Positions 51,435-58,959 of a stretch of DNA of 64,000 nt are shown piece after piece. The notes under the pieces are model-generated. The model ran no database searches, had not been told where the DNA came from, and saw only the letters and a program-made list of their open reading frames with translations. The position numbers were made by a program, and so were the translations under genes. The number at the start of each line of letters is the position of its first letter. Position 1 is the stretch's first letter. The DNA comes from Dictyostelium discoideum. Its lineage: Eukaryota. The stretch spans positions 4,736,001 to 4,800,000 of the forward strand of contig CM000153.2 of the NCBI GenBank assembly GCA_000004695.1, written 5' to 3'.

Positions 51435-51506
51435 ATAATAAATAAATAATAAATATAAATATAAAAATATATAAATATATTTTTTTTTTGTTTGGGTGTG
51501 TGTTTT

Positions 51507-52407
51507 TTAAACTCTTTCAAATGAAACTGTTGAGAAAGTTGGATTTACAACTGCTGAAACGAAACCAAATGAGAAAGAGTCACCAACTGGAAGAGTATTT
51601 ACAAATGATGGGAAACCTAAATTACCAGTTTGAGCATTTTTTTCAACATTCCAAAATTCAGTTGGATTCCAATTATCAGAGTGAATTTGAATTGATTTAA
51701 TTGCTGTGCTATCATTATTTGTTACTGTAACTCTATATTGATAATAGTGTACATTATTTGAATCCCATTGCCAATCAATATCTAATTTATAATTAAATTT
51801 TAATGGTCCAGTTGGTGGTTTGGTTGTTGGTGATGGTGTTGTTGTTGGTGTAACTGTTGGTGTATTACAAGGTTCACCATAGTAAAGTCTTGGACATGTG
51901 TCATATGATTTTAACTATAATCAAAAAATTAAAATTAATTTATAAGTACTATTTAAAATCAAAAAAAAGATTATCTATTTTGTTTATACTTACTGCCAAT
52001 GCATAATAAAAGTTATTTAAATTAAAGAAACCAACATTACCATTACAAGTAAGCTGAGTATTTATTTGTTTTAATCTAAGATTACCATCACTTAATCTAA
52101 TACTAAAATCTTCAACACGGAATTGATCATCAGCTGCAAATGGTTGAACTAATCCGCCACGACTACAAGTTGTTTCATAGGTTTGTAAATTGTATAATGA
52201 TTCCCTTAATACAAATTCACCAGATGCGAAAACAAGATTACCTTTATAACCTTCTTGAGCCAATGATTGAGAATGAACACCAGAGATTGAAACTTGAACA
52301 CATTTTGATGGATCAGCTAATGATGAAAGTAATTGATTACAACTATTATCACCAAATGCAACTGATGAAACACCTAATAATGCAACTAATGAATATAATA
52401 ATTTCAT
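51507..52407 (-). CDS. Secreted Cys-rich domain plus Dictyostelium-type cellulose-binding module (CBM49-like) protein, copy A, 2 exons: 52407..51994 and 51914..51507
   Basis: Signal peptide MKLLYSLVALLGVSSVAFG. ~115-aa Cys-containing domain ending TAT GCA TTG GCA|GTAAGTAT. Acceptor tgattatag|TTA AAA TCA TAT GAC gives 'LKSYDTCPRLYYGEPCNTPTVTPTTTPSPTTKPPTGPLKFNYKLDIDWQWDSNNVHYYQYRVTVTNNDSTAIKSIQIHSDNWNPTEFWNVEKNAQTGNLGFPSFVNTLPVGDSFSFGFVSAVVNPTFSTVSFERV*'. The Thr/Pro linker and W…W…F module resemble the cellulose-binding domains of Dictyostelium spore-coat/matrix proteins. Confidence 0.65.
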
Positions 52408-53670
52408 TTTTTTTAAATAGGAATATTTTAAAATAAATAGTATTAAAGAAAATTGAATATTTTATAAATTTAAATTTATAATTATTTAATTGATGATAAT
52501 TTAATGATTTATTAAAAAAAAAAAAAACCAATCTATTTATACGTTTTTTAAAAAAATAAAAATAATAATTATTAAAAATGAAAAAAAATATAAAAATAAA
52601 AATTCTGTATATTTGTGTATGTAACTGTGGTTATTTTTTTGTGTATGTAATAGTGATTGGAGTTTCAATATAAATATTTATGTGAAAATAGCACTATTGC
52701 TATTGGTCACTTTAGTACATCCATTTTCAGAATATAAAAAAAAAACCAATTTTCCAATCCATGAATCTGTGTTTTTCCACTTTTATCATTTTTACCTTTT
52801 TCAAAATACATCAATATATATATACACACAATGTGAGGGTTAAAAAAATTAACTGAGCACATAAAAAAATTTAACACAACCCCAAAGTATATTAACACAA
52901 CATAATAATTATTTATTTTAAAAAATTAAAAAAATGTATTGGGGGGGTGGGTAGGTAGGTGAAAGTTAATTAATTCTATATATAAAAAAAATTTGTAATA
53001 TTTTAATTCTTTTGATTTTATAAATTCTATGAATGTTTTATTATAAAAAATAAAAACAATTATAATTTTTTGAGAATAATGTAAATAACAACTTATCAAT
53101 AACTGAAAAAAAAAATTAATTATTTTAATTTCGTGTTAAATAAATAAAATGATTGTATATTTTTTTTATATTTTAAAAAAAATATAATGACATTACAAAT
53201 TAAAAAATTGATGAAGAACTTTGTAAAAAGGCAAAAAATAATGGTTTCTTTTTTTTTGATATTAATTTACCAAACTATAAAATGAATTGAAATTATTATT
53301 ATTATTGTATTTACTGTTATCTTTTGATTGTTATATTTGTGTTTTCTATCATAAAAATAGTAGCATTTAATTTTTGAATGCATCAGTTGGCATTTGCAAG
53401 TTCTCTTACTGGATTGAATAAATTAAATGCTAAATAAAAAAACTTAATATCCATTTTTTGGAATAACTAATTTAAAAAAATTATGAAGCAATTTAATATT
53501 GATGAAAAGAACAAAAAAAAGACTATGAAGCTCAAAAAATAATAACGGAAAATTGATTTTAAAGGTTTAGATATATATAAATAATAGAAATATTATTTTT
53601 TTTTTTTTTTTTTTATTATTATGAATATGTTAATAAATATTAAATAAAAAAATGATATTTTAAAAAGTTT

Positions 53671-54625
53671 TTAAGCCCTAACAATTTTAACAGTTGAAAA
53701 AGTTGGATTGGCAGTTGAAGAAACGAAACCAAATGAGAAGGATTCACCAACTTTGAGAGTTGATACGAAAGCTGGGAAACCTAAATTACCAGTTTGTACA
53801 TTTCTTTCAATATTCCAAAATTCAGTTGGATTCCAATTATCAGAATGAATTTCAATTGATTTAATTGCTGTGGCCTCATTATTTGTTAAGGTTAATTTAT
53901 ATTGATAATATGTTACACCACTGGTTATCCATTGATTGTCAATATTTAATTTATAACTAATTTTTGGTGTTCCACTTGGTGTAGTAGTTGGTGTAGTAGT
54001 TGGTGTAACTGTTGGGGTAACTGTTGGAGTAACAGTTGGAGTAACAGTTGCTGTTGGTGTAACTGTTGGTGTATTACAAGGTTCACCATAGTAAAGTCTT
54101 GGACATGTGTCATATGATTTTAACTAAAATTAAAAAAAAAAAAAAATATATATTAATATGAAAAATGATAATAATGATAATGAAAATAATAATAATTAAT
54201 TTTATACATACTGCAACTGTATAATAAAAGTTATTTAAATTGAAGAAACCAACATTACCATTACAAGTAAGTTGAGTATTAATTTGTTTTAATCTAAGAT
54301 TACCATCACTTAATCTAATACTAAAATCATCAACACGGAATTGATCATCTGCTGAAAATGGTTGAACTAATCCACCACGGCTACATGTTGTTTCATAGGT
54401 TTGTAAATTGTATAATGATTCCCTTAATACAAATTCACCATTGGAGAAAACAAGATTACCTTTATAACCTTCTTGAGCCAATGATTGATAATGAACACCA
54501 GAGATTGAAACTTGAACACATTTTGATGGATCAACTAATGATGAAAGTAATTGATTACAACTGGTATCACCAAATGCAACTGATGAAACACCTAATAATG
54601 CAACTAATGAATATAATAATTTCAT
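53671..54625 (-). CDS. Secreted Cys-rich domain plus cellulose-binding-module protein, copy B (tandem paralogue of 51507..52407), 2 exons: 54625..54202 and 54123..53671
   Basis: Exon 1 is ~90% identical to copy A (MKLLYSLVALLGVSSVAFGDTSCNQLLSSLVDPSKCVQVSISGVHYQSLAQEGYKGNLVF…). Donor GTT GCA|GTATGT. Acceptor aattttag|TTA AAA TCA. Exon 2 has a longer (TVTP)n linker and the same CBM (…IEIHSDNWNPTEFWNIERNVQTGNLGFPAFVSTLKVGESFSFGFVSSTANPTFSTVKIVRA*). Confidence 0.65.
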
Positions 54626-57254: not shown

Positions 57255-57558
57255 TTTCGATTCCAATCAAATATAAAAATGTAACTATAACTTTTTTTTC
57301 GATTTCTTTTTTTTATCAAAAAAATAAAAAAAAAAAAAAAAAAAAATAATAAAAATTATTGTTTGAAATAAAAAAAGCTATTTTTTAAAAAATTTAAAAA
57401 TAATAATATTTTATATAATTTGGTTTTTGGACATTTTTTTTTTTTTTTTTTTTTTTTTTTAGTAATTTATCAATAGAAAAAATATTAATCAAAAAAAAAA
57501 AATCAAAAAATCAAAATCGAAATCAAAAAATCAAAATAAAAATAAAAATAGATAAAGG

Positions 57559-58032
57559 ATGAAATATTTAAAGGGTTTAATTTTAGCTTTAGTAGCTTTA
57601 TCAAGTGTTAATTCATTAAATATAAAAGATGATGCTGAATGTATGCTTTGTAATGTTATAGTTGATGAAGCTGAGGCATATGTTGCACAAAATTTTAACT
57701 CCACTGAAATTTCTTCAATCCTCAGTGAAAATTGTCAATTACTCCCAAGCTTCCAAGACGTATGTATTGGTATTGTTGATGAATATACACCAACCATTAT
57801 TAAATATATAATTGCTAAAGAATCACCAACAACCATTTGTGAACAAATTAATTGTTGTGATTCATCATCATCATCATCATCATCTCAAGACTCTTCATCA
57901 TCAAATAATGACTCTTGGTCAGAATTTGGTTCATCATCTCAAGATTCTTCATCATTCGAAAATAATTCATCATCTGATAATTCTCAATCTAATACTGGTG
58001 CTTCAACAGGTACATCTGGTCATAGTTTGTAA
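57559..58032 (+). CDS. Secreted single-domain saposin-B/amoebapore-like protein with Ser-rich tail (157 aa)
   Basis: Signal peptide MKYLKGLILALVALSSVNS. One SapB domain (CMLCNVIVDEAEAYVAQNF…NCQLLPSFQDVCIGIVDEYTPTIIKYIIAKESPTTICEQINCC). Then a poly-Ser/Asp/Gln tail. Confidence 0.75.
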   Translation: MKYLKGLILALVALSSVNSLNIKDDAECMLCNVIVDEAEAYVAQNFNSTEISSILSENCQLLPSFQDVCIGIVDEYTPTIIKYIIAKESPTTICEQINCCDSSSSSSSSQDSSSSNNDSWSEFGSSSQDSSSFENNSSSDNSQSNTGASTGTSGHSL

Positions 58033-58404
58033 ATTAAACATTAAACTCCTTTTTAATAAATTAACCTTTTTATTATTATAAATTGTTTTTTTTTTATTGA
58101 TTTTTTTTTTGTTGATTTTTTTTTTTTTTAATTTTTAACACTTAAAAAAAAAGGTTTTGGGAAACTTTAAAAAAAAATATCTAAATTTCCCAAAAACTAT
58201 TTTTACCATTTTTTTATTTTTTTTATTTTTATTTTTTTATTTTTTTATTTTTATTTTTATTTTTTTCAAAACGATTTTTTTTTTTTCAACATTATTCAAA
58301 ACAGAAAATTCAATTTAATTTGTTTGCAATTATTTATTTATATTAAAATTTTATTTATAATTTTTTTATTTTTGTATTAGATAAAAAATAAAATAAAAAA
58401 AAAA

Positions 58405-58959
58405 ATGATGACTAAAGTTTATTATTATTGTTTTATTATATTTTTATTATTTATTTCAATGATAACATTATCAAATGGTGCAAAAGATATGGAATCAAAT
58501 GAACCAAGCAATTTAAACTTTTATGAATTAACAGAATCATTAAAAGAATCACCAGCATGTACAATTTGTGAATACTTTGTTAATGAAGTTGAAGTATTAT
58601 TATCAAGTAATACTAGTCTTTCAAAGATAAATCAAACTTTAGAACAAGATTGTGGTTTATTTCCATCATTTGTAGAGACATGTTTAGAGGTTGTTATAAA
58701 GTATACAACATTGATGATCAAATATATTGAACAAAAAGAAACAGCAATTTACATTTGTGATAATCAATTTAATTTATGTGATAGTGGTAGTCAATCAGAT
58801 TCAACAGATTATGATTCCTCAAATTCATTTACAGGTTCTTATAATTCAGGTTCATCAATTTCATTTTCTTCAGATTCTTCAAACCCATCATCTGGTTCAG
58901 GTTCTATAACAGGTTCAATGACAGGTTCTGGTTCAGGTTCAGCTGGTCCATTTTATTAA
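58405..58959 (+). CDS. Secreted single-domain saposin-B/amoebapore-like protein with Ser/Gly-rich tail (184 aa)
   Basis: Signal/anchor MMTKVYYYCFIIFLLFISMITLSNG. One SapB domain (CTICEYFVNEVEVLLSSNTSLSKINQTLEQDCGLFPSFVETCLEVVIKYTTLMIKYIEQKETAIYICDNQFNLC). A (GS)n-rich tail. Confidence 0.75.
   Translation: MMTKVYYYCFIIFLLFISMITLSNGAKDMESNEPSNLNFYELTESLKESPACTICEYFVNEVEVLLSSNTSLSKINQTLEQDCGLFPSFVETCLEVVIKYTTLMIKYIEQKETAIYICDNQFNLCDSGSQSDSTDYDSSNSFTGSYNSGSSISFSSDSSNPSSGSGSITGSMTGSGSGSAGPFY

Follow-up and report, generated by a model that had tools for sequence, protein, structure and literature searches.

Do five neighbouring genes whose products all carry signal peptides form a functional island, or do they belong to unrelated families that happen to lie side by side? 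This question is raised by a stretch of 64,000 nucleotides (nt) of Dictyostelium discoideum DNA (contig CM000153.2, positions 4,736,001 to 4,800,000, called the window hereafter), which we take to be part of chromosome 4 of the AX4 assembly. The five genes lie within positions 51507-58959, in a region of ~20-30% G+C that contains poly-Asn tracts and short, AT-rich introns, and the N-terminus of each product is hydrophobic and signal-peptide-like, as judged by a heuristic (basic start, hydrophobic core, then small residues) and not by SignalP. An initial annotation of the sequence had placed five signal-peptide genes at these positions, which is confirmed by gene position and by this heuristic; it had also regarded them as a co-located, recently duplicated and rapidly evolving extracellular or antimicrobial toolkit. 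We conclude, with a probability of about 0.8, that the locus consists of two unrelated annotated secreted families standing side by side, the sheathin-type matrix proteins and the Apl saposins, which belong to opposite ends of the life cycle, and that it is not a functional island. The five genes are as follows.

51507..52407, minus strand: ecmD (DDB_G0286647), sheathin-type extracellular matrix protein, 273 amino acids (aa), two exons (exon 1, 51994-52407; intron, 51915-51993; exon 2, 51507-51914)
53671..54625, minus strand: somE (DDB_G0286649), sheathin paralogue, 288 aa, two exons (exon 1, 54212-54625; intron, 54124-54211; exon 2, 53671-54123)
55930..56931, plus strand: DDB_G0286651, prosaposin-like Apl precursor with three SapB domains, 333 aa, signal peptide aa 1-19
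57559..58032, plus strand: the 'SAPLIP C protein' gene (Q54LG2), single-domain Apl, 157 aa, exact match to XP_637599.1
58405..58959, plus strand: DDB_G0286653 (Q54LG1), single-domain Apl gene, 184 aa, exact match to XP_637600.1

Gene identities and timing of expression

All five genes are already annotated, and dictyBase, UniProt and published papers cover the families they belong to as well as much of the expression data. The spliced ecmD model (gene A) matches exactly XP_637596.1/Q54LG5, an 'extracellular matrix protein', and this accession is named ecmD in supplement S1 of a 2026 life-cycle proteome (PMC12821622). The spliced somE model (gene B) is 98% identical to ACTFIW_012773, and the exact somE protein was not found in the protein collection searched; in the proteome table the row of XP_637597.1/Q54LG4 (DDB_G0286649) adjoins that of ecmD, and DDB_G0286649 received the name somE from a promoter-lacZ study (PMC9117722). 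The product of DDB_G0286651 matches KAM9941924.1 exactly and lacks one residue relative to XP_637598.2/Q54LG3, a 'saposin B domain-containing protein'.

The detected proteins of the two families appear at opposite times. According to the proteome (PMC12821622), EcmD protein is detected only at culmination and in the fruiting body, at values of 4.0e7 to 3.8e8, and DDB_G0286649 protein climbs from ~1e6 at the mound stage to 1.0-1.2e9 at the fruiting body. DDB_G0286651 protein is enriched in the vegetative and aggregation stages (log fold changes: vegetative +4.78, aggregation +5.22; adjusted P 5.7e-5), and the later stages (mound, culmination, fruiting body) show depletion (-3.0 to -3.9); in the same table, cprD, encoding the lysosomal cysteine proteinase 4, has a similar early profile. 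According to Ortjohann and Leippe (PMC11542183), transcription of most apl genes falls in vegetative cells and early development, with aplD, aplE and aplK as the only late genes. The idea of a co-located toolkit is therefore contradicted by the timing, late for EcmD and DDB_G0286649 and vegetative or aggregation-stage for DDB_G0286651. In addition, since the five adjacent genes are two tandem arrays, they would represent two independent events, and their adjacency is then not statistically remarkable.

Sheathin genes: duplication, gene conversion and the N-domain

The products of ecmD and somE share one layout, that is, a signal peptide, an N-domain with six Cys, a Thr/Pro-rich linker and a C-terminal cellulose-binding module (CBM) of family CBM49, which is the sheathin architecture. 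The parts were located as follows.

51555..51794, minus strand: CBM49 of EcmD, aa 179-258, Pfam PF09478, 90.7 bits
53719..53961, minus strand: CBM49 of SomE, aa 193-273, Pfam PF09478, 86.3 bits
51804..51863, minus strand: Thr/Pro-rich linker of EcmD, aa 156-175, seen in the translation; its length differs among paralogues and species
51994..52350 (ecmD) and 54212-54568 (somE), minus strand: sheathin N-domain, the mature part of exon 1

Both CBM49 matches span 78-79 of the 80 profile positions and lie far above the PF09478 gathering cutoff of 23.4 bits, so the CBM assignment, for which the initial annotation had asked for a check with Pfam hidden Markov models (HMMs), passes in both genes. The combination of a Cys-containing N-domain, a T/P linker and a cellulose-binding module that had been read in both genes is likewise evident from the translations and Pfam. 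However, the two genes had been called near-identical, and their products are 76% identical overall (~93% in the N-domain and ~64% in the CBM); the label 'Cys-rich' was also too strong for six Cys per ~137 residues. The sheathins EcmC, EcmD and EcmE are glycoproteins whose location in the sheath of the slug coincides with that of cellulose (PMC3899956), and for ecmC and ecmD cellulose binding is listed as directly demonstrated (PMC12821622). The promoter of somE fused to lacZ is weakly active in 'all somatic cells', namely stalk, disc and cup, and also in prestalk cells and slugs (PMC9117722).

The duplication of these genes is old. The order FKBP-domain gene, A-type (ecmD), B-type (somE), 3-domain Apl, Apl, Apl is also found in Dictyostelium firmibasis and Dictyostelium dimigraforme, so the arrangement and both duplications are older than these species. 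Each of the two related species accordingly has one A-type, one B-type and three Apl genes at this locus, and the claim of recent duplication has to be abandoned, because both CBM paralogues and the three saposin genes stand in the same order there and the CBM groups by orthology.

The sequence of the sheathin genes carries two histories. A protein alignment (three paralogues, three species) shows orthogroup signatures in the CBM49 part and species signatures in the signal peptide and N-domain. Exon 1 (414 nt) is 95.2% identical between paralogues within D. discoideum, 98.1% within D. firmibasis and 98.1% within D. dimigraforme (third codon positions, 92-96%), and it is 88-91.5% identical between species (third codon positions, 73-80%); the loci compared were L001 10001-12765 and L002 10001-13159. 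The last 80 CBM codons are 87-91% identical among A-type orthologues and 75-82% identical between A-type and B-type genes. Furthermore, the intron and the 100 nt upstream are not homogenised (57-80%), and the intron 5' end (GTAAGT or GTATGT) follows orthology. Thus, the duplication of the CBM paralogues is old and the conversion tracts are limited to the exon that codes for the N-domain; exon 1 looks young because it has been homogenised within each species.

A third paralogue, of the ecmC type, likewise has species-specific signal-peptide residues. A third sheathin copy inside the window was considered and rejected by tblastn; the ecmC-type gene (L003 10001-10944) shares the strand of ecmD and somE and follows ~6-7 kb after the last position of the window, at ~70-71 kb in window coordinates. 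A dispersed sheathin array thus encloses the Apl trio along with a few other genes. In supplement S1 of the proteome ecmC is DDB_G0286663, a few genes beyond ecmD and DDB_G0286649 (PMC12821622).

The N-domain is the least familiar part of the sheathins. It matches no Pfam family, and when 1.84 billion representative proteins were scanned in full with HMMER, its relatives were solely dictyostelid, coming from D. purpureum, Polysphondylium violaceum, Cavenderia fasciculata and further Dictyostelium paralogues; its range thus extends from group 4 to Cavenderia. In most of the relatives the N-domain is likewise followed by a linker and CBM49, and a 160-aa D. discoideum paralogue (P0032 cluster) seemingly consists of the N-domain alone. 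In an alignment of 13 sequences, six Cys residues are invariant, as are the motifs QPF and GE.C, and an AlphaFold2 model of the domain built on this alignment (predicted local distance difference test score, pLDDT, 84.3; predicted template modelling score, pTM, 0.78) has an N-terminal helix followed by up-and-down beta structure. This model replaced an earlier one of full-length EcmD from 8 near-identical sequences, which was unusable for the N-domain (mean pLDDT 45.6). No specific solved homologue was obtained with the new model. The sheathin N-domain is therefore predicted to be a disulfide-bonded beta-barrel, and this fold class suggests a ligand- or partner-binding barrel.

Apl trio: SapB domains and Ser-rich tails

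The three genes on the plus strand encode SapB domains followed by Ser-rich tails.

55996-56226, 56254-56484 and 56521-56748, plus strand: the three SapB domains of DDB_G0286651, each with SapB_1 and SapB_2
57634-57861, plus strand: SapB domain of SAPLIP C, SapB_1 29.6 bits, SapB_2 38.6 bits
58552-58782, plus strand: SapB domain of DDB_G0286653, SapB_1 40.2 bits, SapB_2 below threshold
56749-56928, plus strand: tail of DDB_G0286651, Ser-rich
57862-58029, plus strand: tail of SAPLIP C, Ser-rich, in DNA with a (TCA)14 repeat and 18-21-nt repeats
58783-58956, plus strand: tail of DDB_G0286653, Ser/Gly-rich

They are three genes and not one mis-split gene, each having its own signal peptide and stop codon. 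HMM search gave SapB_1 and SapB_2 in the first two genes and SapB_1 only in the third, although in DDB_G0286653 the six Cys and the conserved Asn align with the other domains despite the failure of SapB_2. From the counts of 4, 1 and 1 SapB domains in the initial annotation, the two single domains are borne out, but the large protein has three; a fourth domain in its 333 aa was ruled out, as each half-domain profile gives three Pfam stretches and no room is left. An N-glycosylation Asn is invariant in the SapB domains, with the sequon near the domain start, and together with the signal peptide this agrees with the Apl family, which was described as comprising 17 genes (aplA-R) whose products have a signal peptide, between one and five SapB domains and N-glycosylation sites, with 'linker and end regions' drawn in the architecture figure (PMC5890168). 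The SapB domains of the three paralogues are just 30-36% identical to one another. None of the trio's locus tags occurs in the text of the Apl papers or was found by full-text literature search, and no biochemical study of any member is apparent. The start of the 3-domain protein differs among annotations (55921-55932): MMKFL in AX4 (334 aa), MCVMKFL in an older one and ...TAGGATGAAA in the window (333 aa). Similarly, one strain's model of DDB_G0286653 (58405-58460) begins at an internal Met, with the signal peptide lost (166 vs 184 aa).

Although these proteins are 'amoebapore-like' by family name, they are prosaposin-like in sequence, charge and precursor organisation. Against solved structures, a SapB profile matches human saposins C, D and A at E values of 7e-20 to 1e-14, and the pore-forming relatives follow with NK-lysin at 2e-7, amoebapore A at 1.7e-6, caenopore-5 at 1.9e-4 and granulysin at 7e-4. 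A search of a large protein collection with a profile from a nine-SapB alignment gave 133 candidates, none of which scored, probably owing to a word-index limit. The five SapB domains have isoelectric points (pI) of 4.05-4.59 and contain no His at all, in contrast to the pH-switch His of the amoebapore type. Their net charge is -2.3 to -10.2 at pH 7 and -1.3 to -8.4 at pH 5.2, and all five become positive (+1.2 to +3.6) only near pH 3.5, which separates them from cationic saposin-like proteins such as NK-lysin and granulysin. A pH below 3.5 has been reported for D. discoideum lysosomes, and the characterised Apls, with pI values of 4.17-5.35, become more active as the pH falls (PMC11542183).

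The three Apl genes evolve at different rates. The SapB domain of DDB_G0286653 is 94-96% identical over three species, with a ratio of nonsynonymous to synonymous substitution rates (dN/dS) of 0.07-0.10, and this conservation is far above that of both neighbours (59-79%), namely 59% with a dN/dS of 0.36 in the 3-domain protein and 61-79% with 0.16-0.61 in SAPLIP C. Positive selection was considered and is unsupported, since pairwise dN/dS is below 1 in every SapB domain. Accordingly, the description 'rapidly evolving' may be kept for at most two of the three saposin genes and does not apply to DDB_G0286653, which is strongly conserved.

It is possible, if doubtful, that the trio are true saposins, that is, lysosomal lipid-presenting cofactors for hydrolases which digest the membrane lipids of ingested bacteria, and not pore-formers. 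The affinity for human saposins C, D and A, the low pI with zero His, the prosaposin-like multi-domain precursor with its conserved N-glycan site and the growth-phase timing of the detected protein (PMC12821622) are all consistent with this. However, acidic Apls (pI 4.2-5.4) permeabilised liposomes and Bacillus subtilis at low pH (PMC11542183), so membrane permeabilisation is compatible with acidity; moreover, saposin and pore-former activities are not mutually exclusive, and no lipid-hydrolase partner is known.

The poly-Ser/Gly/Asp tail noticed at first sight is indeed present on all three saposins. The tails are 57-61 aa long and contain 41-49% Ser together with Gly, Asp, Asn and Glu; they are net acidic and resemble the Ser-rich acceptor-type segments of secretory proteins. 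Across strains and species their length is 46-89 aa, and a tail is kept in every orthologue. A search with the 3-domain protein deprived of its tail found only orthologues and one metagenomic relative, the latter tail-less. Among orthologues the 3-domain protein ends in SYSGSMTG[AV]SSG...GTSG[NS]M[KR]IYI[KQH], SAPLIP C in NSQ(S)[IN]TGAS[ST]GTSG and DDB_G0286653 in GSGS[IV]TGS[MI]TGSGSG, and a core [IMNV]TG[AVS]x[ST]G[ST] is common to 8 of the 9 tail sequences. Purifying selection acts on the tail of DDB_G0286653 (dN/dS 0.14-0.41), whose first ~33 residues are identical in three species; in the other two tails dN/dS is 0.66-1.3. A glycosylphosphatidylinositol (GPI) anchor was considered for the tails and rejected: no hydrophobic C-terminus is present, which makes such an anchor unlikely, and the C-termini are conserved in orthologues. 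The suggestion that the tails serve attachment to a wall or matrix is unsupported, the sole detected Apl of the trio being a growth-phase protein that is made before the cellulose matrix is deposited.

Is such a tail a functional element? In Dictyostelium, phosphoglycosylation with N-acetylglucosamine-1-phosphate (GlcNAc-1-P) on Ser is known from Ser-rich domains. CP4, the product of cprD, carries GlcNAc-1-P. The Ser-rich domain of CP7/cprG, the main proteinase of vegetative cells, also carries GlcNAc-1-P (the AD7.5/H36 epitope), which is described as occurring 'on many proteins' of these cells (PMC4920372, with Ord et al. 1997 as its source). The spore coat protein SP96 is another example of GlcNAc-1-P-Ser (Mreyen et al. 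2000, cited in PMC3630849). The most economical reading is that the tails would be GlcNAc-1-P-Ser phosphoglycosylation domains of endolysosomal proteins and/or removable pro-regions. It is rather unlikely that they arose neutrally by expansion of trinucleotide repeats and are tolerated because they are removed together with the pro-region. Such expansion is very common in D. discoideum coding sequence, the tail DNA is built of degenerate TCA, GGTTCA and 18-21-nt tandem repeats, the length varies as described, with a threefold SSSENSQDSWSEYN repeat in D. firmibasis, and the dN/dS of 0.66-1.3 in two of the tails fits this reading too. Nevertheless, the tails are kept in all three paralogues, whose SapB domains have diverged to 30-36% identity, and in every species examined; their last 15-25 residues are conserved, the [IMNV]TG.. 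motif is common across the paralogues, and the dN/dS of the DDB_G0286653 tail is low.

Very improbable is the remaining explanation, a co-evolving toolkit in which sheathins and Apls are co-secreted into the slug sheath and the tails tether the saposins to the cellulose matrix: signal peptides on all five proteins, an arrangement conserved in three species, the sheathin genes that bracket the trio (the ecmC type being a few kb beyond) and the action of AplD at the slug stage, where it affects bacterial shedding into the sheath (PMC5890168), speak for it, but the one detected Apl and the two sheathins are oppositely timed as proteins (PMC12821622), the late aplD, aplE and aplK precursors have one or two SapB domains and accessions (Q54C60, Q54WE4, Q54WE0) that differ from those of the trio, the tails contain no carbohydrate-binding module and no aromatic-rich motif, and transcription of somE and the 3-domain Apl gene is divergent, with nothing that points to common control.

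As for the surroundings, a 122-nt A-rich run (55120-55241) occurs in the 1.3 kb that separate somE from the divergently oriented 3-domain Apl gene, and long T runs lie upstream of every Apl gene (for example 57144-57193 and 58209-58266). The flank at 49956-51338 (plus strand) is the 3' part of an FKBP-domain gene, whose D. firmibasis neighbour carries PF00254, and that at 59283-62918 (minus strand) is a 1211-aa open reading frame with long poly-Asn tracts; neither is a secreted-protein gene.

Proposed mechanism and comparison with known systems

On the reading of two separate families, ecmD and somE encode sheathin-type matrix proteins of late development, made by prestalk and somatic cells. 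Their CBM49 would bind the cellulose microfibrils of sheath and stalk, and the Thr/Pro linker, presumably O-glycosylated, would space the CBM49 from the dictyostelid-only N-terminal beta-barrel. The maintenance of a near-identical exon 1 among the paralogues by gene conversion suggests a shared binding partner or sheathin-sheathin assembly. The Apl genes are tandem paralogues for N-glycosylated, very acidic SapB domains (3+1+1), whose products may enter the endolysosomal/phagosomal pathway and be processed to single SapB peptides; at very low pH, these peptides would bind and destabilise anionic bacterial membranes, in a style probably nearer to saposin C than to the His-switched amoebapore.

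A bolder proposal, which we hold only tentatively and think unlikely to be right as a whole, is that the tail motif, taken as [IM]TG[AS]x[ST]G[ST](S)G with a short hydrophobic end and common to the three Apl paralogues, is an unrecognised sorting or phosphoglycosylation signal and, jointly, that the sheathin barrel is a converted co-assembly or common-partner module. The signal may serve a subset of Dictyostelium endolysosomal proteins, and the CBM49 modules may diverge toward different cellulose contexts while the N-domain exon stays identical.

Several points weigh against this picture of the two families. We infer the lysosomal placement, processing and tail modification of the Apl proteins, and neither the paper on immunoprecipitation with H36 (anti-GlcNAc-1-P) nor its supplements name a saposin (PMC4920372). 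The SAPLIP C and DDB_G0286653 proteins were not found in the part of the proteome tables covered (PMC12821622). AplK2 (pI 4.17), the most acidic characterised Apl, is the least active in pore assays (PMC11542183), so the trio domains, with a similarly low pI, may be weak permeabilisers. Finally, the fold of the N-domain is a prediction from 13 sequences.

The value of these results is mainly corrective, in that the cluster does not constitute an antimicrobial or matrix island of recent duplication and common regulation, and their weight as a discovery is small, as they concern two known families, annotated genes and chance neighbours. Nevertheless, three leads emerge: the sheathin genes as a clear case of concerted evolution limited to one exon, a fold predicted with confidence for the uncharacterised N-domain of the sheathins, and an unusually acidic, His-free, saposin-C-like trio with conserved tails, which could guide tests of saposin versus pore-former activity and of GlcNAc-1-P modification.

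Among the known systems, the sheathins and other CBM49 matrix proteins (St15, CelB) are the nearest to the first family, and gene A is EcmD itself. SomE resembles the sheathins in its equal architecture and late somatic-cell expression, and its cellulose binding and sheath location are putative; it differs from EcmD in the CBM, for which the identity is given above. The trio shares with the Apl family the signal peptide, the SapB domains, the N-glycosylation site near the domain start and the C-terminal 'end regions', and its domains stand at the most acidic end of the range of the characterised Apls.

Mammalian prosaposin and saposins A-D resemble the trio in the multi-domain precursor, the six-Cys SapB signature, the acidic pI, the N-glycosylation and the best solved-structure matches. 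Unlike prosaposin, the Apl precursors have three domains or one instead of four and no flanking SapA domains, and prosaposin is not known to have a Ser-rich acidic C-terminal tail. Amoebapore A, NK-lysin, granulysin and caenopore-5 share the SapB fold family, and their likely site of action, the acidic phagolysosome, and their likely target, bacterial membranes, would be common to the trio. Their sequence similarity to the trio is, however, far weaker, and the trio is not cationic above ~pH 4. The activation of amoebapore A depends on His, and because the trio domains have none, this mode of activation cannot apply to them.

The tails, in turn, are most like the Ser-rich segments of CP7/cprG, which is abundant in vegetative cells, and of SP96, all being long, Ser/Gly-rich, low-complexity acidic segments on proteins of the secretory pathway. 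In the lysosomal cysteine proteinases the Ser-rich segment is internal. The putatively phosphoglycosylated Apl segment differs from that of CP7 in being C-terminal and in ending in a conserved motif.

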